Positions 1 to 49,398 of a stretch of 64,000 bases of DNA are shown here, piece after piece. The position numbers and the translations under genes are program-made. The stretch covers positions 186,001 through 250,000 of the forward strand of contig LVLI01000229.1 of the NCBI GenBank assembly GCA_001687465.1. Reading direction: 5' to 3'. Source of the DNA: Halocafeteria seosinensis. Taxonomy: Eukaryota. Below the pieces are notes generated by a model, which did no database searches, was not told the origin of the DNA, and worked only from the letters and a program-made list of their open reading frames with translations. Position 1 is the stretch's first letter; each line of letters opens with the position of its first letter.

Positions 1-3000
1 TTCTGGAGCAGCCAGTTCCAAGTTAAAGTTGAAGAACGACAAAATCTGTAAAGCACGTTCCATCGAGCTTGGCCATTGCACACGTGTCCTTGCAAAGATC
101 GCCACCACTTGGAAATAATCTAAACCAATTGTAAATGCCGCAAGTTGGATCTGCTTAGCATTGATCAAGTATCCACCAACGGTAGCACCAATAGCAACGA
201 CTGCGAACATAACACCAAGTAGCCAAGCATGGTTTGGGCACGGTTCGCATTCACCATTGATCCGGAAATGAGTTCCATCTGCACACATGCTGCAGCGTGT
301 GGACGTATAGCCGTCTGCACACGTATTGTTGCCAATGCAGGCAAACTTAGGCTCGCATGCGAGGAATACGGGACACTCGTCGCGTCCTTGACGCTTTTTG
401 TGACATCTACTGGAGGGAGTCGTATCATTCACTCTCCAGAATCCTTCCTCCGAGTAGACAAGGTCGATCCTACGCTCCCCTCCAGGGCAGATTGCTCCTA
501 CTTCCTCTTTCGGACAATATAAACACGACTCGCCTTCTAACCCGTACCAGTCGGGTTCGCACCGGCTCACTATGAATTCTCGCCATTTAGGAAAATTCAC
601 TTGTCTCTCCGCTACCGTAAGGTTTATACTCTTTGGACCTACGCCATCGCGTTGCATTCGACACTCAATAAATGAATCACTTTGCACGAAGGCGTTCTCG
701 CAGGGAATACCACCCAGTACCACAGAAACGGATTTCGTTGCTGGTCCAAAGTTTTGGCCTTCTATCATGATCACTTCGCCTTCAGCATCCGGGGTATTAG
801 GCTTTACAGCTACGATCCGGGGAGGATCGTATGACATCATGGCAGTTTCAACCGAGCCAACCCCACCAACCGTCACTTTCGTAACCAACTGAGTACCAAT
901 TCCAGGAGCTAGTACGCAATATACTTCGTCGTGCTTCATCGCACTGAGTAAAGCAGCCGTGATTGCGCATGGCTCTTCTCCCACGCGCACCCCAACAACC
1001 CCAGCAGAGGGGCCAAATTTTTACCAATTATGCGAAGCGGTACGTTACCAGATGCAGGAAAGCAATTTGGGTATTCCTTCATGCAGTCTTCGTTTCCGTT
1101 TAGAGTCGTGCATCTGTCGAAGGGGACGCAGGTTCGACTGGTTTGAAAGTCGTCGTTTGACCGGTCAACTTGGAAAACCTCAGGAGGATCGTATGTGAAC
1201 GCCAAAGGCGCCAGTAAGCCAGCAATGGGACTGCTCCACCCGTCAACGAGTACGCTAACTTGGTTCTCACCGTATCCTTCCGGGAGTGTGAATGCAGCCA
1301 TGGTATGGTTGAGCGATGCACCGAGAACTTCTTTGCCCCCGAAAACCACTCTTCCACTAACGCCGAAGTTCTCCCCTGTCACCACCACAGTAATCGGGTT
1401 GTTTGTATCATCCAGACCCGAAGTCGGATTCTCTCCGGTCAGGGTAAATATAGTATCCATACGGGCAGGTCTATACGAAAGCAACTTGTCGTCGACTACC
1501 GTCTGACCATCAACAGTGACTCGTATTTCCACATTATCGCCTTGGCCATTAGGCGGAATACATTCGATTTCTTGGTGATCGGAGCGAACAATTGTACACG
1601 TTTCTCCTCCAACAAGTACCGTTACATCGGGTGAATTAACTGCTACGGGAAGTCCAGGTCCTGTGGGAGGCCCAAAGTTATCTCCCTGAATTATTATCCT
1701 GTCCTCATCAGGGTTGACAAAAGTAGGAATAGATTGCGGTTCCACATCGCTTAAGACAGGCTTGTCAAAACTTATCGTGAAACTATCTTGGTTACTAGTC
1801 TGCCACGTATAGAATGTAGCAGGTAAGTCGGCGCCGGAGCCCTCAGGCAACATCACCCGGAGGGTGTCATGGTGATGATAGGTAATGTTGACAGGCCCCA
1901 ATCCGAACACATCTAGGTCCGTGTCCTCACCAAGGGCACTAGAGCCGAAATTGCGCCCTTGAATGAGTATTTCGCCTCCTTGCGTAGGTATCTTCTGCGA
2001 TGATACTTGTATTTGCCGACCCGCGAATGTAGTGGCACAGTCACTGTCCTGTCTGACGTATACCACTCGTTCCAGATTGTCGGGAGCGAGTTGGACCAAA
2101 CAAACAGTAGGTGAAGCATAATCTATAGTGAACTCATTGTCTGGAGAGGACACTCCATTGACTTCTATATTCACCGAAAGTTCTTTCCCGACGTTTTCCG
2201 ACGTTATACACGTGATGTTAGCTCGCCATATTCCGTCATTGCTTTGGATAGGATTCAGCGACCCCTTGACAGCACAGTTCCTTCCTCCGATATCTATCTT
2301 GACGTCTGCAATATCCGTTTGAGGATCAATTCCTTGGATGTCGAACAAAATGAGTTCCTCGTTCCCACTAGTGTTAAAATCGGGCCAAGTAATGTAGGCG
2401 TTCTGACCGGCGATTGTAGGTGCAAGCTGACCAAACTCTCTTGTTTCCGATTCTGCCGGCTGATCCAAAACCTTGATGCGCAGAGCATAAGATGACTTCA
2501 TTAGATTCGGTATAACCATACGAATCTGATTGTGACCGTACTTTTCAGGCGGAATGAGTACCACGACATCATCGACATAAACGGAAGCACAGCAGAGGCT
2601 GCTCTCACATGATTCACCCCCACAAAAGTTCTCCCCATCAATAACAACTTCAAACTCGCCCCCAATAGCTACTCTCGGAGCAATATTGGACAGTTTAGGA
2701 GCACCATAATTAAACCATACTGGACTAGATATTGTGTCTCCTAATTTTACCATTACTGCTCGGTTGGCACCAAATCCTTCGGGCAGAATGAAACTGACCT
2801 CTTGCAGCCCCGACTCCAAGTCAACCCATTGAAGATCTGCAGATGAAATGCCTATTTCGTGAATACTTTCTAACCATGCTTGAAGAGCATCTCCATTAAG
2901 TCCTTCCGCGTTAGCTTTGGAAACGTACTCAGTAGGATGACCTTGCTGGATGGGGAAGAAACGCCCCAGTGTACTCCCGATCTCGTCAACGAATGAGTTT

Positions 3001-6000
3001 TGTTCAACCAATCGGGCTAGCTTGCCGCTACTGTCCATTAAAACTGATACGTCAAATTGTTTCAATAAGTTAACCCCAAAGTTATATCCCCGAAGATACA
3101 CTCGAGGCATACTCCCGTGGATTGTTTGGAAGCCAGTGGGACCATTGTCCGGTTCGATGGATACAATCATCGGAGGAGCGTAGTTTGTGCTCGCTGTGCT
3201 CCGGGCACTTCTCTGACCAGCAACACCCACAATCCATCTGTGGTTACTCCCAGATCCTTTATCTAGCCGGCACCGGATACGAGTGTGGTTCAAGACACGA
3301 CAAGAACTGGCCATGTGCTCTGATCCGCGATTTCCAAAGGATACTCCATCCAATAAACCGCCATGCACCGTCGGGATACCGAAGTTTTCTCCGATAATGT
3401 CGACTTGCTCACCGCCGAGTGTGCTGAGAGCGTTAGGGTCAGATTCGTCTACTCCTTCAAACCCTGTAACCACTGGTGGAGCGTATCCTGTGGTGGATAT
3501 TTCTGAGCTCTGTTGACCTATCGTTACTGTCCAAAAATGGTCGGTGCCGGCCCCAGCGGCTGTTAGGCAACGCAGATTAGCATCATCGATGGACTCACAA
3601 GTATCAACAGCAAACGTCTCATTTCCTTCGCCATATGATACACTATCCGGGATGGTCCCAGGGGGACCAAAATAGCTTCCACCCACAATAACTTCCTCCT
3701 CTCCCCGTGTGTCGAAATCATGGGTTCCCTGGCCAATAGGTTCAAACCTACCGCGTCGGTAACTGGCAATGATGGGAGGGTGGTAGTTACTAGCATTTTT
3801 CAAGACGCCAGACTCTTGGCTACTAACCACGACTCTCCACTGATGATCTTTACCTATTCCTGCAACAGTGGTACATTCCAAAAGAATATGATCGACATCT
3901 AGCACACAATCAACTGCCTCGTATTCCAAATGTCTTCCATAGAATACACGGACTGGCAGTGGATCAAGCCACCGAGGCCCAAAATTTAGTCCCCTCAGCA
4001 GCACGATCGTTTTGCCTTTAGTGTCAAGGTTAGTGGGGGGACTACCGAGGATATCCGTTACAGTGGTCAACACAGGAGGGTCATACGCGAGCGAATCTTC
4101 ATAGTCACTTTTTTCTGACTGCAGTCCAGACACCTCCAGCCTCCAAACGTATCCCAAACCGACTCCTGTGGGAATGTCGCACACCGCTAGCGTATGGTTG
4201 TGGAAAGTCGCGGGACATATAGCTGTGAGAGTGTACTCGTCATTCTCCATGTAAGCTCTTAGGGGATGGCCGCTCGGTCCAAAATTAGTTCCTGTCAGCA
4301 TTACTCCTTCGGAAACTCCCTCAGTCCGGATTCCTTCTGTTAAGCGGGTCACTCTATCCACCATCGGTGACGCGTATGCAGGAGGAGAGCCTGAAGTAAA
4401 CCATCCTGTTTGCTGCGCCCAAGTACTTCCCTGATTGCCCACTATTGCCATGAACTCTATTCCTTTACCAGCTCCTTCGACTGTTGTACACGTAAGTCTC
4501 TCGTCGGATATTATTTGGCACGATGCAGCAGTGTATTGCAGTCTTTCCCTGTTTCTGTACACCACCGTTACAGGAGAAATGCGCTCAAACCCTTGATTGT
4601 CGTGGATAATTTTGGGGCCAAACCCGGTACCTTCAAGAGTGAAGGGCTGTCCGCCCTGTGTTGATGCCGTTGCAGGCCAGCTTTGGACACTTGCAATGCT
4701 CGGAGCTGCGTAGGAGGATACCAATTCTGGAGCTTCGTAAAAGTCCTCATCGATGTGAAGCGTCCATAGAAGATTCCTGCCGACCCCAGCTGGCACAACA
4801 CAAGTGACACGAGTGTTATCCCATGTGCGTGTTTCCAGGGTATACTCTCGAGTACAAGTAGAATTGATGCGCAGTTTCCCATCGTTGCTCTGCAACACAG
4901 CCGACACCCTAGCATTTCGCCAAGCGGGACCTAAATCAGACCCCACAAATTCAACCGTATCACCTCCTAATGTGGAGTGTGCGTAGACACTGAATTCCGC
5001 TATAGTCATATCATTTACGTTATTGACATAAATTGTCACGTTGGCGTCAGACGTCAGTCCTTCTTCATCTTCTATTTGAACGACTGCTTGATGAAGGCTC
5101 TTGGTCTCATAATTGAGCCCCTTTCCCGAAGCAAGCCGCAATTCTTTGCCGACGAACGTTAAGAGATCAGGTACGTCACTCCATAGCACTCTGTAGGAAT
5201 AGCTCATTTCCCTATCTACAGGCGTTCGATGCCTGAATGCCAAGTCTGCCAAGACCGCGTCCGAATCACGAAGATCTTCATCAATGATGGCTTCGAATGG
5301 CTCGGCTTCAAACTCTGGCCCCGTGTTAACGAACTCCACTAACAATGTCAATTGGACTTCATCGTTATGAGACTTTTCATCTTCTACAACCACTGACAAC
5401 GAATAGTCCTTCTTTACGTTGTAATCTAGCTTGGAGCTTAGTACAAGGTTAGTCGAAGCCGTGTGCACCTGGTCAGAAAGCGCGATTTGTGTAGTGCTGA
5501 CGGGAGCTAAACTGTCCCCAGCTAACACCTTAAACGAGAGTCTGCCCGCGCTGCCTATATCGGGGTCAAACGCTTCAACTGCTTGAAGAATTGAACCAAT
5601 CTGAGCATCTTCCCGCAGCTGCACAACCGTCCCTGGTGGAATATTTCGAATGATAGGCCTCTGGGGAATGTCAATCACTGAGAGATGGATCTCACCAATT
5701 TCGCTTTCTCGGTTGGTTTGGTCAATACATACAACCTGAAGTACTCCTTGCCGGTGCGTCATAGAAAAATAGTCAATCTCCGCCGAATCTACAGCGGAAA
5801 TCTCTCCGGTTGACGGCTTGACGCGGAATAGATTTGAGAACTCCAAAGGAACTCCCCCACGGATACTGTATTGTAGAACAGAGTCTTCATTCCCGTCAGA
5901 GCACACTAATTTAAGCATCAGTATGGGACCTTGATGGTGCTCATTAACTGTGCCATCGTACCTATAGATGTCATGTGAGTTTTTCTTCACAGGGCCCACC

Positions 6001-9000
6001 CATTTTGGTGCCACTTGGCTCTCCACGACAGTTATGTCAAAGGATGTTCGAGCCGTCCGATTGGTCGAGTCTTGCACCTCGACAGTAAATTGAAATCTGT
6101 CACCTACCTCTACTCCAAAGTCAATCTTTGCTGTGTCGTTTCCATCGGCACCTTCTGAAGGATTAGCAATTGAGGCATTTGTGTTCATACCAAGCTCCAA
6201 AATGGGTTGAATGAGACCATCCTCTCGAATAGAGAGAAAAAATGGACCTATCACCAACCTATACGAAAGCTCCTCTGAATCAGGATCTCTCGCTCTGACA
6301 CTACCTAAGTCGCGCTCCTGATATACTATATCCATAGTAAACGTTTGGACTGGGGGATCGAAGATGGGTGGCTCCTCAACGTCTAAAATGTCTACGCGAA
6401 CCAAGGCTTCCGTTGAAACTTCGTTAACGGTATCTTCAACTCTTATGCGCATTTGGTAAAACGCATCTGGTTTCATGGAATCATAATCAAGATGAGCTCC
6501 AGCGGCAACCTGCAGTTCTCCTGTTACCGTATTCAATGTAAAGACATCCTCATGCGACAGCTGAATAAAGCGGAACACAGAGGGGACAGACGAGTAAGGT
6601 CGGGAAGTGCCTGCGTAAACGTCTGGATCTTTAACGTCAATGGTAGCGAAAACAACGCTGGCCGGTGTCGATAATTCATATACTGATACGGTTTCTGTCG
6701 TGATCTGAGGCGGTTCAGGCACGTCCACAACGAAAATTGTAAAAGTTGCTTCCGCAGTTAGCTCTGCAGATGCTGCGTCGGTAACTCTCACTAGAATCGC
6801 ATACTCATTCTGGGATTCATAGTCTAAACCATTGCCAAGATTTACCGTCAACCGTCCAGAGGTTTGCTCCAGACTAAAGATACAGTCACTAGCGGATCCA
6901 TCCATTTCGACTATCTCAAATAAGAGTAGATTTTTTTCAAGATCGCAGAAATGCTCCAATAAGTCGACGTACGCATTTGGGTCCAATTCATTCATCGCCA
7001 AATCACTAGATGGCTGCAAGTAGCGAGGTGCCTGGTTTTGCTTCACGATATTCAACGTAATTTGAGTTTCCGCAGACATCGTGGGACCAGGCTTGGTATC
7101 AATATTGTTTGTTACCTCTGCTGTTACACGAAGTGTAACAGTTTTATCGTACGACTCACAAGTACTGCAATCAGGCGTTTGACATCGTAGGGCAATAAAG
7201 CCGGTAGTCCCAGTGATTGTAACGGAGCCGTCACTTGATAGTTCCACGCGCTCTTCTGTCTGACCTCGATTATTAATCGCACTTAGCAGTGTAAACGTAA
7301 ATTCATCGCCGTGGTCGTCGCTAGCTTCAAGGGTGGCAAGTATCCCAAACTTGCGTTCACCAATATCGATACGCGTGATCAAAATTTTGGGAGCATTTCG
7401 GAGTTCCTGTACATACACTTCTAAAGCAGTATCAATATGTCCCGAGACCCTATCAGCGTATCGTATTGGAAGGTAATTGGGTAGGTTACCTCGGTTACTG
7501 TAGTCCAAGTATTTCGGGTCCTTTACGGTTACAATTCCATTCTCGGAGACAGCGAAGACTTCGCAAGCAGTATCAAGACCGCACCCACCCTTCGCAGCGA
7601 AGATCTGATCACCATCAGGGTCGGTTACAAAGTCTTCGTGCAAAATTGTTTGTCTAAAATTGCGCTGTATGTCGTCAGTTGTTGCAACAATGGTCCCCTT
7701 TTCTGCCGCCTCCACAACATAGAGTACAGGCATTGTGTCCTTAATCCTAGGAGGTCTATTTCTTTCACTGACAGTAATCTCAAGCCTCTGTATTATTTGG
7801 CCACCGTTTTCGGGTCTATTATCACTTATTAGAATGAAGAGCGTCATGGCAGCAGGTCCGTCCTGTAGAACCAACGGATCGGCCACACGAAGTTGCCCGG
7901 TGCAACTGTCTAAGAAAAAAGGATGCACTGCGTCTTCAAGAGAACGTCTAAGCCTTCCTCCAGCGTCGGTGAACGTATAAGTTAGCTCATCGCCGTCGGG
8001 ATCGGAAAAGATACCGTTCAAGGGCTGCCCCACCGTCTCGTTGAATGGTTGCCCCCTTCTGGCGATGACTGCAATGGAACCTGACTCGCCATCGATTCTC
8101 CGTGGAACGGAGTTGACAAACTCCACTCCGATCGAGATAGTACATTCCTTATCGAGTTGGATACTATTATCTTCCTGTAGCACCCCTTTTATTTTCACTT
8201 TGTATTTGTCACATTGGACGAATTGAAGAGTCTCCCCGGCTCCCACAGCAAGTTCTCCTTTTGTCTGAATTATTGGAGTGCTCGATGTGTCTCCATTAGG
8301 ATAATACAGAGAACTTTCATCTACCATAGACTTGATGCGAAATGGCGAATTTCCGCTAATATCATCATTGCACAATCTACCGTCCTTTCGTCGACCGTCT
8401 TCCAACACTTGCGTAATTTGGTAGATCAGTGATTGATAGGAGGTTCGTACCTCCAAAAGGAATCTTTCCCCAATTTTTGTATCACTGTCTCTTGCCACGG
8501 CTATTTCAGGAGCGAAAATATCTCTGGGATTGGAAGCGCAATGAAGATCCTTCCACATCAGCTTCTCAGCTCGTAAACCTTTATGACATACATAGTCAAC
8601 AGAACATTCGGAGCAGCCAGTCCTTCGAGATTTATCGGGCCCTTCTGGAGTTGTATAATGCCCCACTCCACAGTGGTTCTGAAATCCTTCAACACAGTAT
8701 TTCCGTGGATCATTAGACGAACAGGGTAATTCACGTGCAGAAGTACTCCCCGGAGGGCACTGAAAGCCATCATCGCATTTTCCGTTGCATTCACTGGACG
8801 TTAAGCCCTTGTCTTTGCCATACATTCCCTCTCGACATTTGAACCTCTCCCCCTTGTCACAGTAATATCCTGCATCACAGAGTTGCTGATACCATCGGTA
8901 GTTCCCGTTAGCATTAAGAGGTGCACTATAATAGCGAGGGCTCACGGACAGCGGACTTAAACTGCCAGGAGGACAGTATTTCGTCTGGCCGCCACAAGGC

Positions 9001-10132
9001 TTTTCATTACCCTCCGCGGTTCCAGCAGGACAGTATCTTCCAGCTGGGCAAATACCAGTACAAGACGGTGAGGCCTCCCCGACTCTTCCGTAGCGCCCTC
9101 CGGGACACACACCTCCATCCGTTGCTGAAGTGCTACCAGCATTGTTACAATATCTTCCTGCCGGACAGTTACGACATTGATTCACACTTCCTAAGCCTGT
9201 AGAACCCCCGTATCTACCAGCTGGGCAAGCCCCCGTGCTTACTGAACTTATTGTGTACCTTCCCTGAGGGGCAATAGGGCAATAAGACTGCCTGCTGCTA
9301 GTTTGGTAGTATCCAGATGGACTGCCAGTACATGCGCTCTTTCGACTTCCAGAAGAGTAGTAGCCTGGTGAACATGACGAGCAACCATTACTACCTGTAT
9401 TGCTAAACTGTCCCGCTCCGCAGTTTCGGCAACTGGAAGTGGTATATCGATACCGTCCTGCAGGACACGAGTTACAAGCATTGGACCCGGAAGAACTGGT
9501 TTGTCCAGCTGCAATTTTTCCCAATATAATAAATTCAATTTCAACAATCATCTCCGCAAGCTTGGCACTAATGCTTACATGAGCACGTGGTGTCCTGTTG
9601 ACTCTACAGGCTGGTCAGTATCAACCAAGCTACCACACGAGTTGGAGCTGTCGGAATTGCCCTTCAGGACAATACGCACCGTCTTCAGGGTATACGGAAT
9701 GTGTCTCCTGTCCCAGTGGCCGATATGCTTCTTCAACGCGAAGCACGTCGTGCAGCTACTGCCCGGCGGGATACTACCAGCCCTCAACCAGCCAATCCAG
9801 TTGTAGAACCTGCCCCTCCGGTCAAATATCCGGGACACAGGCCAGGGGCTGCAGTACCTGTCCAGCGGGACAATACGAACACTCTAAGCGCTGGTGTTAT
9901 AATTGCCATCGTTGCACATCAAGAAGCGAATTCGAACATGGATTGGGACGGCACTTACGCTGCAGTAACAGCAGTACAGATAACTCCTGTAATAATAGCT
10001 GTAGTAACGGTTAATGTATCTCCCAGGATGACAGTTGGACCACCTCCAGCTACATTGTGCGGAAACAACATCTAAACATCCACTCCAGATCAGCAAAAGA
10101 AGGACAAAAAGTTCGAAAGATCTCGAGAGCAT
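1..10132 (-). CDS. Giant Cys-rich repeat / cadherin / IPT-TIG / multi-TM surface protein, copy A; runs off the left edge; as assembled it is disrupted by an inverted exon 2 and a 1-nt frameshift at ~1015-1022
   Basis: Exon 1 is 10132-9959 (signal peptide MLSRSFELFVLLLLIWSGCLDVVSA, GTAAGT donor). Exon 2 is on the opposite strand at 9610-9903. Exon 3 starts at 9508 after TTGCAG. Cadherin motifs include DPDGDELTY, LDYE, DVPEPP and DPDSEELSY, and there are many IPT-like GxNFG motifs. It is colinear with copy B. Downstream of ~1014 the shifted frame again matches copy B (GPSAGVV...DYFQVVAIFARTRVQWP...LELAAPE). Confidence 0.88.
9586..9903 (+). other. Inverted segment carrying the intron-1 acceptor and nearly all of exon 2 of copy A
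   Basis: The + strand reads ...gttgactctacag|GCT GGT CAG TAT CAA CCA (AGQYQPSYHTSWSCRNCPSGQYAP...KRWCYN), homologous to minus-strand exon 2 of copies B and D. It is flanked by GCA (9583-9585) and TGC (9904-9906). The last exonic bases and GTAAG donor remain on the minus strand at 9582-9574. Confidence 0.93.
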
Positions 10133-11324
10133 GTTAACCCCCAGCGCGATGTGACGATTTCCTGTAAGTTAGGAGCAACTCCATAGTGTGAACAGTCACG
10201 TATTGTCACAATGCAAGGGTTTGACAGGGCTTTCCAGATTCCACGGAAGTATCCGTTACTCCGCAGCAAGGGAAACATTAGAAGTCGCGTAGCCCATCCC
10301 TCATAAAAGTGCCGTCACCCGCTCCTTCCATTTGGTTTAGGACGCTTAAGCCAGGAACCCAAGCATCTAATACAGAAAAGAGCTCAAACCCTTAAAAACA
10401 GGACACTAAGCCATTCTCAAGTCCTTGGAATTCTCCGTTCAATTCCGTTTACGGTCAAGGAATCAATGACAGCGGAAGCGCAAGAAATGCCATAGGAACA
10501 GTACATATACACCTATCTACCGATCTTATGTCGTGAGGGACTTACTGCTTAATGAAAATTTTCCAACAATTTGCTCTTTTAAAATTTTCCGATTTCTACT
10601 TTTGAACGAAAAAATGACGAAAACGGTTGTTACTTCTCAATATTTGTCCCCGGGGTGCTCCCCAGTGATCGGATAAATCGAAGGCTTGAGGTCGAGAGAC
10701 TTTTGCGGGTATGAAGAACCAACAAACACAGACATATCGTATGTTCTAGTTTACCTTCTAAAAGGATAGATTCCTCCAATACTTTCCAGCCTTGTTCTTC
10801 ATACTTTTTGTTGTTATTTTTGGCTCTATGCTGTCCCTGAGGCGGAAACCCGCCGACCTCACTGCTACTTCCGCCCCTTTTCGCTGCGGGATATTCCACC
10901 TGTAATCCATGATTTCACTGGCAAGCACTGCTCCTATGGGACTGTCGTGGACATGTTAGATATACAGAATGTACATTTATCGAAAAAGGGTTTGAGCTGA
11001 CCTAAACATCTTGCGACAAAGGAGTATAGACTCTATAGAGCCTGCGAGAATCTTGAGGGGACTCCGCCTCCAAACTCCGACAAGTTCAACATGGGTGTGA
11101 CATGGCCTAAAATCACTTTTAAATGCCTTTATCGAAGTACTGGCACTGGTTAGGAGGAGGATGTAGATCCTGAGCATCCCATGCAGAAGAGTGCTCAGAG
11201 GAAAATGTCGTCCTTCAAGGGCGCTATGTCGCGCAGTTCATTGGTCGCAAGTGCGATCCACCCTCCCTGAGACTAAATTAAGACTTGTCTATACTGCTCG
11301 GTTAGGAATCAAATTTTGCTTGGT

Positions 11325-14300
11325 TCACTGCTCTTCTTTTTCTGGAAAGAAAGATTGCGAACCCACGTTTGAGGGAGAGTCTCGAGCTGAAGGCGAAGTA
11401 GGAGACTCGGTGCCTCTGGAAGATGCGCTACGTTTCCTGTTGCTTCGGAAAGAACTTGATCTTCTGAGGTTTTTCAACGAATTATTTTGGTTCTTGAATG
11501 CTAAAGATCGCTCTGTCGTTTCATCCTTCTTCGGGGCTGCTTTCTGATCGGTTACAACAGAGGGCGTGTAAGCACGTTTGAAGAATTGCCTCTGGCTGTT
11601 GGAGATCATGTGCTGACGAAAATCATTCTTCTTCTCTTGAATATTTTCTTCGCGGGCTGTATGAAGTGTTTCAATTTTACGCAAACGTCGGATCTCAGCT
11701 AAAGCCTCCTCCAACTGTGCTTTGTACTCGCGACCCTCTTCCACCACTCCGGCTGAAGTGCTTCGGCCCTTATTTCTATTGGGCTGTGGCATTGCAAGAG
11801 GGTTGACTTGTGTATCATAGCTATCATCCACAGATAAAGAAGTTGTAGATGATCCACATCGCAACAGCTTTTCAGATCTGGTGGAGCCAATATCTTCAAT
11901 TTTCCGGGCCTTCACTTTCTTCCCGCACGAGAACCACGCAGTAATCATCAGCGCTGTGTAAGGACGGAACGTACTCAGAAGTTCAAACGCGAGTACCAAG
12001 ACGAAGTATACGCAGCTCAGCGTTATCAATACTACGGTGAGTATACCTAACGTCTCGAATTCGGCCTCATGCCGCTCCCTACGCTCCCCTTGGAATCTTC
12101 CTGATAAGAACATAATACCTGATAGATTCACCAGTAGGGCGCTTCCAAGTAAAACTGATTCAACCACATTGTAGTCAGCAAGGGCCCGCACAATTGGCTC
12201 CGACACCGGGATACCGTCCCTAGCTTCTTCAAGAAGTTTGTGTTGAGCATTCATCGTGTTCGCCTTTTTACTAGCCCTTTCTTTCGACGCGCAGGCATCA
12301 AGCACTGACTGTATCTTCATATGCATTTCATCGCCTTCATGAACCTTTCGTTGGTGCTCCTCCAGCACTTCCTGATATTGACGTTTGCTCATATAGGGGA
12401 TATGCCGAATGTGCATCGCGAACGAAGCAAACACCACCAAGAGTGACATGCCCAGTTGATACGTTGGAGACGTCCTGAACATCAATGCTGTAAACGCAAT
12501 CAACAGTTTTCTCATGAGAATCAGCGTGATCCAGTACCATTTTCCAGGCTTGAATAAGTAATAGAGACGTTGGTACCTTCGGCGGAACACATAGTGTGGA
12601 TTGGTAATTGGGCTCTTCCCCTTGCCATGTGCTCGGAGGATCTGGTCGTGCTTCGCTTTCTCTTTATTCCGACGAAGGAAGACGAAGGAACCGATAGGAA
12701 ATGACAGGACGTACAAGAATGCTGTTATCAACGCCAACGGCAACAACAGCTTCACGTGAACATCAGACTCTCCGCAAATAATGTTGGTGTTTCCGGCCAT
12801 GTACAAGTTTCCGTCAGGTGGATCAGTTGGGCTACAGTTGAACACGTCCAACGTCATCCGAGCGAGAAAGAGGTACAGAACATACATTATAATAATCATT
12901 GTTGCTATCAACGCGTTCAAGTGGGTATGCCGCTTACTCGCAGGACGTTTTAGTACCCATAACTTGTAGAGGTAGTGTACACAGTACAACAGCCCTAGCA
13001 GTACAGCCGCTGCCAGTGGAACTGCCATGGTGGCCATCCATCGAACCTCGTAAGGTGGCGCCGGCTGGACATAACATTCCGGAGCAGCCAATTCCAGGTT
13101 AAAATTGAAGAACGACAATATCTGTAAAGCACGCTCCATCGAGCTTGGCCATTGTACCCGGGTCCTCGCAAAGATCGCCACCACTTGGAAATAGTCTAAA
13201 CCAATTGTAAACGCTGCAAGCTGAATCTGTTTAGCATTGATTAAGTAGCCACCAACTGTAGCACCTATTGCCGCCACTGCAAACATAACGCCGAGCAACC
13301 AAGCATGTTTTGGACAGGGCTGACATTCACCATTGATCCGAAAATGAGTTCCATCGGAACACATGCTGCAGCGCGTGGAAGTGTAGCCGTCGGCACACGT
13401 ATTGTTGCCAGTGCACGCAAACTTTGGCTCGCAGGCCAGGAAAACAGGACATTCATCGCGCCCTTGACGCTTTTTGTGGCATCTACCCGAGGGGGTTGTA
13501 TCATTCACTCTCCAGAATCCTTCTTCCGAGTACACCAGGTCGAACTTACGCTCACCGCCGGGACATACTGCTCCGACCTCCTCATCCGGACAATACAAGC
13601 AAGACTCGCCTTCCAGCCCATACCAACTGGGCTCGCATCGACTCACAATGAACTCGCGCCACTCGGGGAAGTTTACCTGTCGTTCTGCAACCGTAAGGTT
13701 GATACTTTTGGGGCCCACTTTATCACGTTGCATGCGACACTCAATTAGCGAATCACTTTCTACGAAGGCGTTTTTACACGGAATACCACTCAAGAGTACA
13801 GAGACCGACTTCGTTGCCGGTCCAAAGTTTTGACCCTCGATAATGATCGGTTCGCCTTCCGCATCAGGGGTATTTGGTTTAACAGCTATTATTCGAGGCG
13901 GATCGTATGACATTGTGGCAGTCTTCACTGAATCCACGTTTCCAACCACCACCTTCGTGGTTAGTTGAGTACCAATTCCTGCAGGCAAGCTACAATATAC
14001 TTGATCATGTTTCATAGCACTGACTAACGCTTCCGAGATGATGCACTCGGCATTTCCAACAAGTACCTCAACAACTCCTGCGGACGGTCCGAAGTTCTTA
14101 CCCAGAATACGAAGTGGAACATTACCCGAGGCAGGGAAACAATTTGGGTACTCGGTCATGCAGTTTTCTTGGCCGTTTACAGCTGTAATACATCTTTCAA
14201 AAGGAAGACAAGTTCGGCTTGTTTGATAGTCATCGTTGGCCCGGTCAACTTGGTAAACTTCAGGAGGATCATATACAAATGTTAGCGGTGCCAACAATCC

Positions 14301-17300: not shown

Positions 17301-20300
17301 GCTGAACAGACTATACTGATCATTCTCCATGTAGGCCCGGATAGGATGCCCCTTGGGTCCAAAGTTCGTTCCAACTAGCAGAACTGCTTCAGCTACTCCT
17401 TCGGTAGAAACAACATCGACTAACTTCACCACGCCCTCTATATTGGGGAGGGCATATGACGGAAGATCACTAGGCTCAAACCATGCAGTCTCCTGTGCCC
17501 AATCAGCGCTTTCGTCTCCCAAGATTACCTTAAAACGGATTCCTTCTCCAGTCCCTTCAACCGTTTTACAGGTTACTTGACCGTCTGATACAACTTCGCA
17601 TAAAACTGCACTGTGCGTGTCTCCTTCGTCATTATTATATAGTACAGAAACTGGTGTAGGGACTTGGCCACCGGTACCACCGTGGATTGTCGTTGTGCCA
17701 AGCCCCTCGCAGGCTAGACTGAATGCCTGACCACCCTGGGTAGAAGCCATACCCGGCCACGAGTGAACATCAACGATTTTCGGTGCTATATAGGAGGATG
17801 TCAGCTCCGGTGCTGTGTAAGTATCTTCGTCGACCTGAAGCGTCCAAAGAAGATTTCGTCCAATCCCAGCGGGCACCGTGCATCTTATCCCAGTATTATT
17901 CCAGACATGGTTCTCTTCGCTATACTCGCGATTGCACGAGGCATTTGTACGGATTTTCCCGTCGCTACTCCGCATTGAAGCTGACACTCTAGCCTCCCTC
18001 CAAACCGGACCTAGGTCAATTCCCACAAACTCAGCTGTATCGCCACCAAGTGTAGAGTGCAGGTCAACGTTGAATTCGTTGACCACCAAATCGTTCACAT
18101 TCTTCACATAGATTGTAACATTGGCATCAGAAGTCAGTTCGTCCTCATCTTCGATTTGGACGACGGCGCGGTGCAATCTAGTTTCCTCATAATTAACGCT
18201 CATACCCGGTGCAAGTCGCAGCTCCTTACCGGAAAACGTTAGCAGATCCGGGACGTCACTCCATAGCACTCGGTATGTATAGCTTACTTCTCCGTCTACA
18301 GGCGTGCGGTGAGTGAACGAAAGATCGGACAAAATTGCCTCCGAGTCGCGAATATCCTCCTGGATCGTAACCTCATACACTTCAAAGTCAAAAACTGGAG
18401 CACTATGCACAAATTCCACGAAGAGCTCGTATTCGAATTCATCTCTCAGTGAACCCTCATCTGTCACTGTAACTTTCACCACGTAATGCTTCTTTATATT
18501 GTAGTCCAAATCTACAACCAGGGTTAAATTGCAACGGGCCATGTGACCATTTTGGGAAAATACCAATGGTGCGACGCCCACCGGAGCGACGGTATCTGTG
18601 TCGTCAACCAATGAGACACTGAATTCCAGGTTACCGCTGCTTGACTCATCCGGATCGAATGCTTCAATCTCCGCGAGTATTACTCCTGTCTGGGAGTCCT
18701 CTGGTAGCCGTATCACAGGATCTAGAGGTACGTTACGGAATTCAGGTGACTGCTGGACATTTGCGACAGTAATGTTGAGTCTTCCAGGTTCACTTTCTCT
18801 GTTCGTCTCGTCAATACAAACAACTTCTAGGATTCCTTCTCTATGCTGCATGCTGAAATAGTCAAGTTCCGACGGAACTGCCGCTTCTACTTCTCCAGTG
18901 GAGGGATTAACTCTAAAAAGACTAGAGAACTCGAGAGGAGAGCCGCCACGACTGCTATATCGCACGGTACCACCATTGGGATCATTGCACTCCAGCTTAA
19001 AACCCGGAATTGGGCCTTTGTGGTGTTCTTCTATGCGAACGGGGTATGGTCTGCTCCCTGTCTCCGTGAAGTAGTCTGCAAAATCATTGATCCACCTTGG
19101 ATCAGCTTGAGCCTCTATAACACGTATGGAAAATGTGGCTTCCGTCGTTAAATTTGTCGAGTCCTTAACTTCTACAGTGATGTGTAAAATTTCACCAACT
19201 TGGATCCCAAAATCAACGCCCCCATTGTCTCCGTCCGAGCTATTGACTGGTCCTGCTCCCGCTGAGTCAACCAAAGGAAGAATAGTCCCATCGTCTCTGA
19301 TTGAGAGGAACGAGGGTCCATCCACGAGATGATATGAAACTGTGTCGTGAACGTCGGGATCTTCCCCTTTCACTGTTCCCAACTCTTCGTCCTGGCGGAC
19401 TACATCCATAGTGAAGTTCTGTACGGGTGGATAAAAGAGCGGGGGCTCGTCCACGTCTAAGATCGTAACTTTTAGCGAGGTAGTAGATGACACATCGTTT
19501 ACAGTATCTTCTACCTTGATGCTCAAGAGATAAAAGGGTTCAGGGTAGAGATCCTCGTAGTCAAGAGAATACCCCACCGCAACTAAAATTTCTCCATTGT
19601 TGCGGTCTACCGCAAATATATCTGAATGAGACAATTGCGTAAACCGAAATTCAGACGGCGCCGACGAATACGGTTTAGAAGTTCCCGCGAAGACATCGGG
19701 GTCATCAACATCAATGATGGCAAACGCTCCATCTCCGTTTGTTGTCAGCTCATTCACGAAAACTTCTTCGGTAGTAACTGCGGGAGGTTCGGGGATATCA
19801 ACAACAAAAATGGTAAAGGTTGCTTCAGTGGCCTGATCCGGAGAGGCTGCATCTACCGCACGCACGACAACAACGTATTTGTTGTGGTCTTCATAGTCTA
19901 ATCCGTTGGCACTAATTGTTAGTTCCCCAGACGTTTGCCCCAACGTAAACAAATTGTTATTGGAAGAACCATCGATCTCAACGACTTCAAAGAGCAATAG
20001 GTTATTCTCAATGTCACAGAAGTAAGGAAAGAAATTGATGTGGGCGTTCGGATCTAACTCGTCCAGGGTCAAATCCTCTGCAGGTTGAAGGTACCGAGGC
20101 GCCTGGTTTTGTTTCACTATATTTAAAGTGATTTCTGTCTCTTTGGAAACTGTCGGACCTGGTTTGTCGTCCACGTTGTTAGTTACCTCAGCTTTTACCC
20201 GCAGAGTGACCATCTCATCGTAAGTGTCACAGCTGCTGCAATCAGAGGATGCGCACTGAATTGAGATAAAACCAGTTTCGCCGGTCACTGATATTTTTCC

Positions 20301-23167
20301 GTCACTTGCGAGGGCGATCCTTTCTTCTGCCATACCTCGATTATTCACAGCGCTCACTAGCGTGAATGTAAATTCATCCCCATGCTCGTCAATTGCTTCA
20401 ATATTTCCCACGTCCCCGACCTCGCGCTCGTTAACATCAAACGCCAAAGTTGAAACTTGAGGCGCCTTACGAAGTGCCTGGACATAAACTTGTAGCGCGG
20501 TGTCGATATGTCCCGAGAGTCTATCCGCGTACCGAATTGGAAGAAAACCAGGCAAGGTGCCTGGATTACTGTAATCAAGATACCTGGGATCATTGACCTT
20601 AACGATTCCATCTTCTGAAACAGAGAACACTTCACAGGCAGTGTCGAGCCCGCAACCCCGTTTTGACGAGAAAATTTGGTCTCCGTCAGGATCCGTTACA
20701 AAGTCTTGGTGAAGGATTGTTTGTCGAACATTCCGGTTTTTGTCATCTTTTGTCGCAACAATAGTCCCCTTTTCTGTTCCTTCCACGACATAGAGGATAG
20801 GAAGTGTGTCCTTAACCCTTGGAGGACGATTCCTTTCCTTGACAGTAATGTGTATTTCCTGAATTAATGTTCCTACATCCTCAATTCTGCGGTCGCTGAC
20901 CAACACAGTGAGACTCATGGTGGATGGACCATCCTGCAGCTCCAAGGGGTCCGCTACTCGCAGCTGGCCAGAGCAACTATCTAGGTAGAACGGATGTCCG
21001 GCCTCACCAAGGGACCTACGGAACCTAGCGCTAGAATCAGTAAACGTAAAAGTCAGTTCATCGCCATCAGGATCTTCAAATATGTCACTGAGTGCATTCC
21101 CAACGGACTCATTGAAAGGTTGACCACGTCTAGCAGTGATTTCCAATGGCCCCGATTTTCCGTCAGTGCGTTTCGGGGCGGAATTGACAAATTCAACACC
21201 TACTGCCACGGAACATTCCTTTTCCAAGCGGATATTGTTATCTTCTTGAAGTACCCCTTTGAGCTGCACTTTGTACTTGTCACAGGTGGCAAACTGCAAA
21301 GTCTCTCCAGCACCTATCTGCAGCTGACCCTTCGTCTGAGTAATTGGACTGTTGGAGCTGTCCCCGTTAGGATAGTAAACTGAATTTTCGTCAACGGATG
21401 ATCTTATCCGAAATGGCGCATTCCCTGTAACGTCAGCTGTGCACAAAGTCCCATCCTTCCGTCGGCCATCCTCGAAAACAGAGGTTATCTCATACGTCAA
21501 ACTCTGATAAAGGGTTCTTACTTCCAAGTGCAGCATACTGCCAATGTCAAGGTCATTCTCTTTCGCTTCAGAAACTTCGGGGGCAAAGATATCTCTTGGA
21601 TTGTTGGAGCAATGCAAATCTTTCCATTTCAGTTTCACTGTCCGCAATCCCTCATGGCAGACGTAGTCGACAGAGCATTCCTGACATCCAGTTCGACGCG
21701 ATTTATCAGGTCCCTCCGGGGTTGTGTAGTGTCCTGCACCACAATGGTTTTGAAAGCCTTCAACGCAGTATTTGCGAGGATCGCCGTTAGAACAAGCAAG
21801 CTGTCTTGGTGAAGTGCTTCCTGGAGGGCAACGGAAACCATCGTCGCACTTTCCATTACATTCACTCGACGTCTGACCCTTGTCTTTTCCATATATGCCT
21901 TCACGGCATTTAAATCGTTCACCATTGTCACAATAATATCCAGCATCACAAATCTTTTGACTTGACCGATGCTTTTCATGCGCACTTAAGGGAGTGCTAT
22001 AATACCGCTGGCCAACTGATAGAGGGCCGTCACTTCCAGCAGGACAGTATTTTGTTTTGCTCCCACATGGTCGTTCATTTCCTTTAGCGGTGCCCGTAGG
22101 ACAGTACCAGCCGGCTGGGCACTGACCACTACAACTTCGGGAAGCCTCTCCAGCTTTACCGTAGCGTCCGCCAGGGCATTTTCCGCCATCTGTTCCTGAC
22201 GTGCTTCCGGCATCGTCACAATATCTACCCGCGGGACAGTTACGGCATTGATTTACGCTCCTCAGTGCCGTAGAAGCTCCGTAACGTCCAGCAGGGCATG
22301 CTGCAGTGCTTGTTCGACTTGTTCCATAGCGCCCCCTCGGGGCGGCGTCACAATGAGACTGGCGTGAGCTTGTTTGATAGTACCCCGAGGGGCACCCTGA
22401 GCATGCTGTGTTCCGACTTCCCGTTGAAAAGTATCCCCGCGGACACGATATGCAGCTATTTCTTCCAGAGTTGCTGTAGGTGCCTGGTCCACAATTCCGG
22501 CAGCTGGTTCTGCTGTACCGATACTGGCCAGCAGGACAGGAACGGCAGCTGTTCCACCGAGCTGAGCTAGTTTGTCCGGCTGCAAGATCCGAACCAGTAG
22601 AAATCAGTGTTTCACTTCTACTACCTCAACACTTGCATCACTTACAAGGGCAATTCCGACACCACCGACGACTGGCTTCGTACTTTCCCGCCGGACACGA
22701 ACTACAGCTTCGCGCTCTTGTTCCTGAAATTTGCCCCGCTGGACAGCTTCTACACCCTGACTGGCGGGAAGAAGGCTGATATTGTCCAGCCGGACAATTT
22801 CGGCACCCACGATTGCCTGATCCAGACGCGTATTGTCCACTTGGACAGTTTCGGCAGGAGGTGTAACCAATACTTGGGGCATACTGGCCAGACGGACATA
22901 AGCGGCAACTCCGACTGCTGTGGTACGAGGGTTGGTATCGACCTGTCTGCATTGACGGAGAACAGCAAAGTTTTCCGCGTCGAGCACCAATACTGCTTCA
23001 AATAGCTGACTTACTTGGCAGTGACAGCACTTATGCCAGTAATTGCTCCAATTGCTTTGATATCTTCCTGGGTGGCAATTCCACCTTCTCCAGGAACATC
23101 CCGCAGACACCACATCCAATAGGGTGAGGAAACTCAGAAGCAACAGAATAGACGAGCTTCCCGACAT
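11325..23167 (-). CDS. Giant Cys-rich repeat / cadherin / IPT-TIG / ~9-TM surface protein, copy B (intact, 3902 aa; nonagonal-cadherin-like)
   Basis: Three exons: 23167-23015, 22946-22646 and 22579-11325, totalling 11709 nt (divisible by 3), with GT-AG introns. By eye, exon 3 stays open from 22579 into the 3440-aa ORF. Order of features: signal peptide, CxxCPxG repeats, cadherin repeats, IPT/TIG repeats, juxtamembrane Cys-rich region, about nine hydrophobic helices, Ser/basic cytoplasmic tail. Confidence 0.93.
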
Positions 23168-24694
23168 CGTTCCTGCAATTCGTTTTGGCGCACGGTATAC
23201 CCTGTGGAAAGACGAATCAAGTCGATGGGAATCTTGAAATCAGCTGGCGTAAGTTGTCGGAAATGGACAAAGGATTTCCGCCGAAGAACAAGCAGTATGA
23301 GGGTGCGTCTTCCTTCTTCAGAACATTCAACCTCTCTTTCTAACGTCGGCGCCCTTTCATTCCCATATACGGGCATACACTCTCCCATGAGGAACAACAT
23401 GCTCTTCTTGTAGGGTGAATAGACGTGTATGGAACAATGAGACTTTCCATCCCCTGGCGGAAAACTACCCTTCCAATTCCTTTGTCATGCTACAGAGCTA
23501 ACAACTCTTGATTCAAGCGGACCAGCTCAATGAATCATCTTCATGGATTTAGAACTGGCATATAGATGCGCTTCTTACCTCTTATGGAAGCTTCCAAATG
23601 CTTTAAGGCGCCGAATTCCGACTGCTTCTACGAGCCAGCAACAGCCAGAGATTCTCAACGAGGCTTTTCTAACACAAAGACAGGTTCAAAAGTAAAAGGA
23701 AAAAGAAAAAGGCTTCGTTCTCGTTCTTTCCTTAACGTTAGACGAATTGGGTGTGAACACCGACAAACGTAGACAAATAACTTTGACTGCAATATATGCT
23801 TGTTGAACCGACAGGGCAGAATTCCGTTGACAAAACCTGTATTTCCCTCGTCTCTTTTGTTGTTTCCAAAATGCCTTTGCTCCCCCCAAGACAGAACCCC
23901 TTCATCCTTTTTGTAGTTTCCGAAGGGCTGGATCCGCGCTGCTCGCTAGTCAAGTGCAGTACCTCTCCATCTCGGAGAGGTGGAGAGCCAAACGGTCCTT
24001 CATTGAGCTTATCATGGTGCACAGTAAATACATATAGTAAACCAAATGAATGCTTCTCCCACAATGGTGTGTCTTAGAGTTTGCCAGATGTTGCGACGGA
24101 CGAGCACAAGCTCGCAGCTCGCTATGCGAACTCCGCTGTCCGAGCCTCAAATTCCGACAGGTTCAACATGGGTGTGTCTGTGTAATTTAGCAAGTATAAT
24201 TCAAAATTCAGATGTCGGGAGTTGCCATATACCTAAATATACGTGCATCCCAACAAGTTATAGTGCCATGCATGCCTTCCAACGAGGAAAGTGAATCCGT
24301 CCTCCGCAAGGTGAGTCAGTGGAGTCAACAGCCAATCCGGCGGAGTCAGAGGTATGTATAGGTAAAGGAACATGCTATAGGTATGCATTTTTCCAGTAGC
24401 CATCGTTCATTTTGTCTGGGGAGAGTAAGTTCTGTCCCACACATGGAGGCTCTCCCGATAGTGCATAGCCTTACCAGAGTCATCAACTCCTCGCAAGGGT
24501 GGCGTTGTCGGCAGTGTTGGGCAGTCCACAACTTAGACCACAAATGCTTCAAATATTTGCAGTTTTCAGTAAGTATAGAGAAAACCAACGTCACTATTTA
24601 GTGGGTTCCCATTATAAACTTCCTAAGTTCTTCTTGCAATAGGCACTTAGCTGCTGTGGCAATCGCTGAATAGCCTACCAAAGAGTGATCAGTA

Positions 24695-25310
24695 TGGTTC
24701 CCGAGATTTGCCCAGCTGGGCAATTTCTACATCCTGACTGGCGGTTAGAAGGCTGATATTGTCCTGCGGAGCAATTTCTGCATCAACTATTGCCTGATCC
24801 CGATGCGTATTGTCCGCTTGGACAGTTACGGCAAGACCTGCAGCCAGTACTTGGGAGGTGCATAAGGGGAAGTTTCGCCAGTACAGTAGTAGAGTGTATA
24901 ATTAATGGCCTGCCGGCTGGATATTCAAATGAACCAAGACTACATCCATGCACCGTGAAGACAGACAAGGCTACAGTACCATCTATCCCTATTGGATAAC
25001 AGCTCTCCACAAAAGGGGTGCGTCACAACCATCAAGTTTCGGCAACTCCGACTCCTACTTGTATGATAGCGAGCTAAGCGAGTTTGGTATCGGCCTGACT
25101 GCCGTGAAGTGGATTTACTTACTTGGCAGTGCCAACAGTAAACGTCTCTCGCCCCCTCGCCCCCGTTTGACATATTTTCCAGGATAACAGTCCGACCAAC
25201 TCCATCTCACACACACATATGTGACAGATAGCACTCTGCGGACACGACACCCGATAGAGTGAGGAGGCTCCACGGAAAATAAAGAGTATCATAGATGGCC
25301 TCCAGGTCAT
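24695..25310 (-). pseudogene. Decayed 5' part (exons 1-2) of a third family member, copy C
   Basis: Frameshifted signal peptide (MTWRPSMILFIF / SLLTLSGVVSAEC), RWSWSDCYPGKY, YCWHCQ|GTAAGT, and a shrunken 24-nt intron. Exon-2 homology SCRNCPSGQYASGSGNS*CRNCSAGQYQPSNRQSGCRNCPAGQISGT contains an in-frame stop and an insertion. Confidence 0.85.
25208..25230 (-). mobile_element. 23-nt insertion: 3' tip of a (TG)n-tailed element
   Basis: TATCTGTCACATATGTGTGTGTG splits VVSAEC|RWSWSDC in copy C exon 1. Positions 25208-25232 match 33312-33336 at 24/25. Confidence 0.7.
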
Positions 25311-26139
25311 TGTTATCCGCCTTCGGGTTCGTCTGCACCAGGAACTGTGATCGAGTGCATGCGAATAACGAGCATCATAATTGTCCCTTGTGAGAATAGG
25401 ATCTGGTCGTTTGTAGCATCGCTCACATCAGAGGGGATGGTACTACCCCTCGAGAGCAAGTGACCTACTCTTGTGCAGTTTGCCCACAGGGCACATTTGT
25501 GTTTGTGGAGATGGGTGTAATGCTTTCTTGGGACCTGGAGACTACTTGCGAATTGGCTAGGGACCGGGTGGTGGTCGCTAACCTACCTCATAACAATTTA
25601 TATGGTATCACTGTTTTTCCTTTGCATACAAAGCAAACATCGTTCACAACAAACGTAGATACTTAATGATGAATGCCATATGTGCTTATTGAACACAGGG
25701 ATGAGGTAGAAGATGTGTTGGGGTGACACGGTGACGGACAACCTCGCCAACAAACTCTCGGGGTCGCCTACTGGAACCCGAACCTCCCGTGGCTCGTCGT
25801 CGTGGCAAGTGGCTGAGCTGGTTTCAGATACTGCTTCTGAAGGAAGAAAAACAACTTCGACATGGATATTGTTTTTCGTTCACTTTTCCTGAACAGATCG
25901 TCAACGAATTCGAAGTTCAACTTGGGAAAAGTGCCACTAATCACTACGAAACAAGTCAACCCTGGGCAAAGGAAGGAAATAAAACTAGAGTACAAAAACA
26001 CAAAAACTGCTTAGGTCTGCAAGAGTATACTACATGGGCAGGGGCCAAAACAGTTCACATGTTGGAGGGGAAACGCTCGGTACTACTAAGAGACTCCCAT
26101 GAGCGATGTTACTGAAACAGACCCCTGTGTCAATTCCGA

Positions 26140-27731
26140 TCAAGAATTCTGTTCCCTACTTGGTCGCTGAGCCTTTAACGGAATCCGGCGATAGCGAGGA
26201 ATGGGGAGAAGCTGGCATTTAACATTGCTCTCCCCGTCTGCATAGTGTCCCCACGGGCAGAGGCGACACGCCTCAAGACCTTTCGTTTCTGAGTAATAAC
26301 CAGAAGGACAACTGTCGCATGAACTCGAAGAGTTGACATAGGTCCCCTCGGCACATGGTTTGCACCTCACAGACCCTTCCATACTGACTTTCCCACTACG
26401 GCAAAGCCGACATGTCTGGGCTCCTTCAGCTTCTGAATAATACCCAGACGGACAATTGGCGCATGTTTTTGAAGAGTTTGCGAACCTTCCTTCTGGGCAT
26501 GCTTCGCATCTCCCCGACCCTGCCATGCTTACTTTTCCGGTACGACAGAGACGGCACCTCAGCGATCCTTCAGTTTCTGAGAAATAACCAGAAGGACAAT
26601 TATCGCATGTCTTTGAAGAGTTCGCAAACCTCCCTACCGGACATGCATCGCATTTCTCAGATCCTTCTGTGCTCACTCGTCCGGCTGTGCGAATGGACAA
26701 TCATAGGCAATCTAACATACTCTAATTTGCTAGGATATGAGACCAACTTACGTAAGCAAGGTTCACATTCTTCCTGAGACGTCAACTCAACCGCTGGTCC
26801 AAACATTCCACGAGGGCAGGGCTTGGGATGGATTCGGTTGTCAGCGTATCTGCCACGAGGAGCCGGCTCACACTCGTCCATTCCTTCTGTGTCTTGGTAG
26901 AATCCAGGGGCACATCCAGTACACTCGTGATTGTGGCTTTCAGTTGCAAACTTTCCCCGCTCACAAAGAACACACTGCTCTACTTTTGATGAGCTATATT
27001 GACCCGGTCCGCATTGTTCACAGTTACTATCGTTAGTGGATCTTTGCTCTGAAAAACAAGAGTGGCAAAATCTCGACCCGCGGAGACTACTCTGGCCAAC
27101 TGCACACGCACACATAAAACCCATAAAGTCACTGTCATTGTTCAAATCAAACATCTGGCTTACATGGACAATCCTCACATGAATGTTTATCGTTTTCAAA
27201 CTTCCCCGCTTCGCAGGAACTGCACTCTTGGGCCCCAGCTCCGGATATCTGTCCCGGTGCACAACTCTTACACCGTGATTGTCCAGATGAAGGCTGATAT
27301 CGACCTGCAGCACAGTTTTCGCAATCGCTATTTCCCTCGTTGGAAGAGTACTGTCCAGTCGGACAGCTTTGGCAGCCGGTATTGCCTGTCCCTTTTGCGT
27401 ACTCCCCTGGCGGGCAGTTTCTGCAGCTCCGATCCCTGCCAGAGTCAGGTTGGTATTGGCCTGACTGCATTTTACAGACACGGACTTCGATATGCTACAT
27501 GCATCACACCTGGTTTTGAATGGAAAATTTTTCCTACGAATAACGTACCTTGCAATAACAACAGCTAAAATAATATCCTCTCCAGTAGTACCAATAGCGT
27601 ACATAGTCTACATATCTCCCCGCAGCACAGTAGTTCCATTGGATACTGCATCCTGCAAATACAACTCTCGATAAAAGAATGAGTTGGAGCAAAGAAGACA
27701 GTGCCAGTGTCATTGCGGGCCTTCGTGACAT
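26140..27731 (-). CDS. Short secreted Cys-rich (CxxCPxG repeat) paralog, copy D, ~450-460 aa; C-terminus possibly truncated
   Basis: Exons 27731 (or 27713)-27549, 27464-27164 (301 nt), 27099-26752 and 26684-26140. All introns are GT-AG with compatible phases. It has a signal peptide and no cadherin or TM part. The Cys pattern breaks down after KCQL. Confidence 0.8.
26250..26684 (-). repeat. Three tandem 48-aa (144-nt) Cys-rich units in copy D exon 4
   Basis: GRVSTEGSEKCDACPVGRFANSSKTCDNCPSGYFSETEGSLRCRLCRT / GKVSMAGSGRCEACPEGRFANSSKTCANCPSGYYSEAEGAQTCRLCRS / GKVSMEGSVRCKPCAEGTYVNSSSSCDSCPSGYYSETKGLEACRLCPW. Confidence 0.85.
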
Positions 27732-43262: not shown

Positions 43263-45391
<2,129 letters not shown>

Positions 45392-45498
45392 GGGTACCTC
45401 GATGTTTTTCAACGAGCAACTCCAAATCTTCCTCAAGACCCCCAAATCACAATCTAGTGCATCGACGCTCGAACGGCTACGTACGACTTATGATGACC

Positions 45499-49388: not shown

Positions 49389-49398
49389 GAGAGCAAGC

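Follow-up and report, generated by a model that had tools for sequence, protein, structure and literature searches.

A tandem cluster of cadherin/IPT surface-protein genes in Halocafeteria seosinensis that probably evolves by gene birth and death

The stretch analysed here (the window) comprises 64,000 nucleotides (nt) of contig LVLI01000229.1 from the protist Halocafeteria seosinensis (assembly GCA_001687465.1, positions 186,001 to 250,000 of the forward strand). Positions 1-27731 of the window hold four minus-strand paralogs of a putative cell-surface protein family, in the order D, C, B, A. These copies probably form a birth-and-death tandem cluster whose members function or decay independently of one another. 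Because B and D, the two copies with spliced contigs, are joined only to their own exons in the available records, the locus is likely a case of ordinary birth and death of genes and not of exon swapping. The same view, already advanced in the original prediction for this locus, is upheld by the purifying selection between A and B, by their position as sisters in the family tree, by the fresh lesions of A and by the older decay of C.

Splicing was read from the contigs of four sequencing runs (X1-X4), which were found by a search with positions 7000-16900 and belong to one study with two samples, none of them being recorded as RNA. Their contigs were aligned to positions 8500-28400 and tell what exists, not what is absent. 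The X1 contigs behave as DNA. The X2-X4 contigs, which represent one sample and cover the 5' ends thinly, lack six stretches that begin and end with CT..AC (GT..AG when read on the minus strand), and they are treated as RNA because of these spliced joints. Five of the six stretches (64-84 nt) are exactly the modelled introns, and the sixth is a new intron of 377 nt (23577-23201) in the 5' untranslated region (UTR) of B. Each joint stays within one gene, three in B and three in D. In B, a single X2 contig links the non-coding exon to exons 1, 2 and 3 (joints 23200/23578, 22946/23015 and 22579/22646), and the coding sequence is one open frame. X2 contains all three joints of D (27464/27549, 27099/27164 and 26684/26752); X3 repeats the second of them and X4 the third. 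The stop codon of D is crossed without splicing by an X2 contig at 25843-26435.

The original prediction had recognised four co-oriented copies with a common signal-peptide exon, B being intact, A near-intact, C decayed and D devoid of the cadherin, IPT and transmembrane parts, and all of this is borne out. The four copies could be placed on the minus strand (Table 1), and exon 1 ends in all of them at a phase-0 donor with a CC/CWxCx motif (YCCYCS-gt in A, KCCHCQ-gt in B, YCWHCQ-gt in C and SCCYCK-gt in D). Exon 2, which differs strongly between copies (50-69% amino acid identity), measures 301 nt in B and D, with phase 0 in and phase 1 out, and is flanked in both by spliced joints in X2/X3 contigs. 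The claim that this length also applies to A holds less firmly, as the 301 nt of the restored exon are the best fit but not a unique solution.

Table 1. Features of the gene cluster, with positions numbered along the window
Feature	Position	Strand	Details
Gene D, 458 amino acids (aa)	26140..27731	-	exons 27731-27549, 27464-27164, 27099-26752, 26684-26140; signal peptide and Cys-rich repeats only
C upstream stretch	25649..25700	-	like B transcript start region (23816-23763); score 58 vs shuffle mean 27.6, 0/200 shuffles
Copy C, pseudogene	24697..25310	-	frameshift in exon 1, 24 nt left of the intron, incomplete exon 2 containing a stop and lacking its donor
156-bp insertion in C exon 2	24878..25033		flanked by an 8-bp target-site duplication (direct repeats 24870-24877 and 25034-25041); terminal inverted repeat absent
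C downstream remnant	24030..24176	-	like B 3' UTR (11099-10951); score 56 vs shuffle mean 28.3, 0/200 shuffles
B non-coding first exon	23578..23764	-	joint 23200/23578, CT..AC ends, X2; upper end inferred from contig extent
Gene B, intact, 3,902 aa	11325..23167	-	exons 23167-23015, 22946-22646, 22579-11325; one open frame
Nine-helix membrane module of B, aa 3244-3689	11967..13304	-	predicted model, hydropathy, weak PF06011 match
B 3' UTR	10797..11324	-	X2 contig covers 10797-22280, 0 differences
Gene A, disrupted B paralog	1..10132	-	exon 1 10132-9959, exon 3 from 9508; leaves window at position 1
Inverted segment in A	9582..9907	+	holds intron 1 end, acceptor and almost the whole of exon 2; breakpoints may be off by a few bases
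One-base frameshift in A, upstream of membrane module	1010..1020	-	base missing near 1015, short T run; X1 agrees

A and B have diverged under purifying selection. Their amino acid identity is 69% across 2,817 codons and reaches 88% in a further comparison of 340 codons, synonymous sites are near saturation, and the ratio of nonsynonymous to synonymous rates (dN/dS) is ~0.05-0.06. In a tree of 23 rows over a region of 355 aa, from which no rows were dropped, A and B are sisters with support 100/99. Gene conversion between A and B finds no support within the window, the longest exact matches being just 26 nt.

D is the short spliced copy. Its exon 2 aligns with that of B without gaps (score 331, next offset 96), its exon 3 lies in register with B residues 153-267 (ungapped score 249, next offset 7), and a membrane-domain profile finds no match over 23200-28400. 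Exon 4 carries a 48-aa internal repeat (67/132 positions) that ends abruptly in a basic, non-repeat tail. Nothing in B corresponds in register to this exon, and D is therefore not simply a truncated B. A search for relatives of D exon 3 gave 25 candidates, 0 of them at an expectation value (E) <=1e-6. Given its signal peptide and the absence of a hydrophobic tail, D is predicted to be secreted, and its sequence would suit a functional soluble binder as well as a gene beginning to decay.

The pseudogene C combines a frameshift, a stop and an insertion with the loss of its donor, and its coding region has shrunk to exon 1 plus roughly three quarters of exon 2. The latter shares 83% nucleotide identity with exon 2 of B and contains one stop; across the 52 codons compared, the differences at the three codon positions number 5/5/17. 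Three of five non-coding or exon-1 comparisons beat all 200 pair-shuffles, namely the regions upstream of C and B, the C downstream remnant with the B 3' UTR, and exon 1 of C with that of B. The B-like remnants upstream and in the former 3' UTR suggest that C is likely an older whole-gene copy of the B type, from which ~11 kb were lost internally. Up to 8 X1 contigs with differing flanks map onto the 156-bp insertion, to which the RNA-like runs also contribute contigs, and because of these different flanks the insertion is likely a dispersed mobile element similar to a short interspersed nuclear element (SINE).

In A, by contrast with this older decay, the damage looks fresh. Exon 2 lies in an inverted segment of ~326 bp and one base is missing further downstream, yet the 9,975 coding nt are free of stops, so that neutral decay is limited to < ~0.007 substitutions per site; the 3' end of the gene is outside the window. 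Read on the plus strand from 9610, exon 2 of A is open for ~100 codons and is 69% identical in amino acids to B exon 2. Depending on the breakpoints chosen, the exon is open over 292-316 nt for several pairs; with 9582-9907 it measures 301 nt and ends like D exon 2. The inverted acceptor is also a valid acceptor on the sense strand, which would permit a 25-nt in-frame micro-exon (9604-9579) with the old donor. Since no stop has appeared despite the inversion and the frameshift, the loss is likely recent, and A is probably a gene that worked for a long time and was broken a short while ago.

Two other explanations of A have to be weighed against recent loss. The gene could be alive as a soluble ectodomain, in which a sense-strand acceptor yields a micro-exon of 25 or 16 nt and translation stops behind the frameshift after ~2,920 aa, short of the membrane module. 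The acceptors 9604 and 9595 do give open frames of 2,923 and 2,920 aa with the old donor, but chance alone would put one acceptor in three in frame, and 9 nt separate these two. Cover of A by X2-X4 is nearly nil (a 287-nt X3 contig at 55-341 and a 173-nt X4 contig at 10636-10808), a gap not taken as evidence, and although the X3 contig fits A with 0 differences, it is unspliced and may be DNA carry-over. Both lesions moreover seem to be of very recent date, and nothing indicates that the new form has been selected, so that a living soluble A is highly improbable. The lesions could also be artefacts of assembly or amplification, A then being a second intact gene. The frameshift does sit in a short homopolymer, chimeras can mimic inversions, and the lesions are without independent confirmation because X1 is possibly the source of the window. 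However, a 12,720-nt X1 contig spans both lesions with 0 differences over 1-11000, and it belongs to a separate assembly with different contig ends; the chance that A is intact is small.

A different organisation would apply if exons 1-2 of D or B were spliced or recombined onto the large exon 3 of a copy further downstream, so that the tips would vary, as in clustered protocadherins or the sDscam genes of chelicerates. In sDscam loci, every 5' cassette carries a promoter and is joined by splicing to constant exons that the cassettes share (PMC4835542). The cluster resembles these systems in that 5' ends of the same orientation and matching intron phase are lined up in tandem before a large exon, and resembles the protocadherins in its cadherin repeats. 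Further points in favour are the strongly differing tips and the body of A, which is almost intact behind a broken exon 2. Unlike in those systems, the live copies have their own 3' exons and stop, and the cadherin repeats are in the would-be constant exon. The original prediction had derived possible swapping from the shared intron phase. That phase is indeed shared, with exon 2 ending in phase 1 in B and D and exon 3 of A and B starting in phase 1, but it is not diagnostic, since duplication yields it; intron 3 of D is also in phase 1. The joining of D or B exons to exon 3 of B or A is not supported by the records, in which B and D are spliced only to their own exons: B exon 2 to B exon 3, and D to its own exons 3-4. 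With these exons and a stop of its own, D does not depend on a constant exon as a 5' cassette would. Swapping would also demand skips of 4.6 kb (D to B) and 13.1 kb (B to A), as against introns of 64-377 nt, and a splice from B to A would have to run past the 3' end of B. The body of A is itself frameshifted before the membrane part, and C has lost its donor and contains a stop. None of the 15 joints listed connects D to B or B to A, a blank that is not counted as evidence as contigs may miss rare hybrids. Upstream similarity, a possible sign of one promoter per cassette, was found for B and C alone. Taken together, exon exchange along the cluster is very unlikely.

That the inversion in A is a reversible, programmed switch (phase variation) is the least credible proposal, for although the inverted segment covers almost exactly one exon and its acceptor and has no stops, no inverted repeat of at least 8 nt pairs its ends (22 pairs listed, 0 at both breakpoints, with a 2-3-nt match only), the independent frameshift would spoil a flipped-back A, and the other orientation is found in no contig listed among X1-X4, this last blank again not being counted as evidence.

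Several points nevertheless weigh against birth and death as set out here. The read evidence consists of contigs only, from one study with at most two samples, and the type of X2-X4 is not on record, RNA being deduced from the joints. The lesions of A could be those of one allele or a mutation acquired in culture. The upstream regions of A and D show no similarity to that of B (32/200 and 110/200 shuffles reached the score), and birth and death does not by itself account for exon 4 of D, which is foreign to B. Finally, any adhesion or channel role assigned to the proteins rests on domain content, and the score of B for the relevant membrane domain, PF06011, is below the cut-off.

On balance, birth and death remains the preferred reading, and its course may be outlined as follows. 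Unequal crossing-over would have built the cluster, after which the copies would have diverged or died singly. B would have been retained as an intact, spliced gene and D as a short spliced copy with a predicted secreted product, A would have been disabled recently by exon inversion and frameshift, and C would have been gutted by deletion and insertion.

The product of B consists of a signal peptide, cysteine-rich (Ephrin_rec_like) repeats, cadherin repeats, an IPT/TIG array, a DUF7630-like cysteine module, nine predicted membrane helices and a cytoplasmic tail. Three Pfam families score above their cut-offs, TIG with 161 bits, Cadherin (PF00028) with 91 and Ephrin_rec_like with 29. By sequence, 30 solved cadherin chains in the PDB match B, and the IPT domains of MET match it weakly. 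The IPT array also shows a weak likeness to the TLP-IPT glycofibril model (E 1.4e-07, no single stretch passing; bioRxiv 10.1101/2025.09.30.679562), which may serve as a lead only. The mature N-terminal 25-35 aa of A, B and D (10132-9959, 23167-23015 and 27731-27549) are rich in tryptophan and tyrosine, bounded by cysteines and variable in length between copies, and are a candidate ligand-binding tip.

The membrane module was modelled with a predicted local distance difference test score (pLDDT) of 81 and a predicted template-modelling score (pTM) of 0.81, and the model contains nine helices, each with a hydropathy of at least 1.6. A fold search of the PDB with this model gave no match at E <=0.001; the best Z, 7.7 with a root-mean-square deviation of 8.6 over 195 residues, was to Hrd1 and is in the range of chance helical bundles. 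B matches PF06011 with 18.1 bits, under the cut-off of 28.5. Among the aligned family members, 12/23 match this domain at E <=0.1, and the cut-off is passed by two of 12 relatives scanned (P0082 with 30.6 and P0087 with 29.1 bits), four of these 12 having been chosen because they were already labelled PF06011. In one Atlas cluster (rank 6), PF06011 is assigned to 25% of the members. The ML-like TRP_N domains (PF14558/PF02221) are absent from the Pfam matches of B and 22 relatives, and the DUF7630-like cysteine module occupies their place.

The family extends well beyond the cluster. Among 50% clusters, 2,683 are related to the membrane module at E <=0.001, and with the C-terminal part of B as the query, 69 of 3,308 candidates proved to be proteins of about the same length. 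Named relatives are found in Cafeteria roenbergensis (several paralogs), in Phytophthora sojae (one) and, by accession label, in Cantina. Cadherin, TIG and DUF7630-like parts occur together in five of six relatives scanned with Pfam (E <=0.01), the sixth (P0045) having no DUF7630 match, and cysteine-rich repeats occur in three of the six. Comparison of the isoform pairs P0005/P0220 and P0045/P0221 revealed no alternative N-termini. The members P0004 and P0011 are 66% identical and each have a longest contig of 46,677 nt (the same contig is not confirmed), which suggests another tandem pair in a relative. Within the organism itself, contigs of all four runs match the membrane region of B at 13097-13118 and then diverge, a hint at more paralogs elsewhere in the genome. 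A scan for related loci with an alignment of the A and B N-termini gave 487 pattern matches, 0 confirmed.

Besides the protocadherins and sDscam, three known groups of proteins are relevant for comparison. Nonagonal cadherins, the nearest family with a name, reportedly described by Fletcher, van West and Gachon (2016, Gene 593:64), are said to unite extracellular cadherin repeats with nine membrane passes and to be distributed among stramenopiles. The B family resembles them in its stramenopile relatives, including Phytophthora sojae, in its cadherin repeats and in its nine predicted membrane helices, but has an N-terminal block of cysteine-rich repeats and a long IPT/TIG array, which are not known to be part of the family description. 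Judged by these features, the B family likely belongs to the nonagonal cadherins, whose named members include PPTG_11709. Nonagonal cadherins of stramenopiles are also cited in passages of PMC7409359, PMC11603286 and PMC8164589.

The second group is formed by FLC and Pkd2 proteins. PF06011 is the domain of the fungal FLC proteins (PMC9600462); for fission-yeast Pkd2, nine membrane helices were predicted (bioRxiv 10.1101/2022.08.11.503631), and the reconstituted protein passed calcium upon membrane stretch (PMC9727806). The B family shares with FLC/Pkd2 the nine predicted membrane helices and the PF06011 matches described above. By contrast, B itself stays under the cut-off, has no ML/TRP_N match and carries an ectodomain of ~3,200 aa. 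The third comparison is with the tgr genes of Dictyostelium, which encode TIG-domain surface proteins at a locus with duplications, inversions and gene loss (bioRxiv 10.1101/2025.08.01.668227). The present cluster shares the TIG-domain surface proteins and the locus dynamics of duplication, inversion and loss, but architecture and lineage are different, and the likeness concerns locus dynamics, not allelic polymorphism or self-recognition.

The domain content of B points to a tentative function. On the cell, the protein would stand as a long stalk of cadherin and IPT repeats. Its tip, encoded by exon 1 (51-61 aa), is variable, rich in aromatic residues and bounded by cysteines, and may bind prey, substrate or other cells. 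More tentatively still, the nine-helix module might relay contact as an FLC/Pkd2-like calcium-handling unit. That nonagonal-type cadherins are adhesion-gated, Pkd2-like sensors, without any exon swapping, is a doubtful but not negligible proposal. A more elaborate version, in which D exons are joined at low frequency onto B exon 3 and those of B onto A's, the resulting tips sit on a stalk that gates an FLC/Pkd2-type calcium module, and D is shed as a soluble tip, has only a very slim chance of being correct.

The surroundings of the cluster contain other kinds of genes. A THADA/Trm732-like gene (28478-33421, minus strand) lies directly upstream of D, and a contig reaches down to 28185, ~450 nt from the start of D. 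Inspected by eye, the frames of 41672-61323 presumably encode a malate dehydrogenase, a glutathione reductase, a dual-specificity phosphatase, a proteasome alpha subunit, a ubiquitin-conjugating enzyme, a BBS7-like protein and a mitochondrial carrier; the BBS7-like gene would point to a flagellated organism. Outside the cluster, 49149-49373 holds a direct repeat of 79 nt (90%) and 36506-37006 an inverted repeat of 86 nt (73%). Rfam gave 0 matches across the 64-kb window.

The locus displays three modes of loss side by side: the inversion of a single exon with a frameshift, a large deletion with a mobile insertion, and the shortening to a soluble form. Such clusters are common among surface proteins, and most of the interest lies in a possible link between these cadherins and FLC/Pkd2-type membrane modules. 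No such link in stramenopiles was found in the literature searched on these domains, Fletcher 2016 lying outside that search. The protein itself is the more useful lead, as a cadherin/IPT molecule of 3,900 aa with a nine-helix end weakly similar to fungal FLC/Pkd2. If true, the link would provide a testable mechanism, contact-gated calcium entry, for the little-studied stramenopile cadherins, and it would represent a non-animal parallel to the polycystins.

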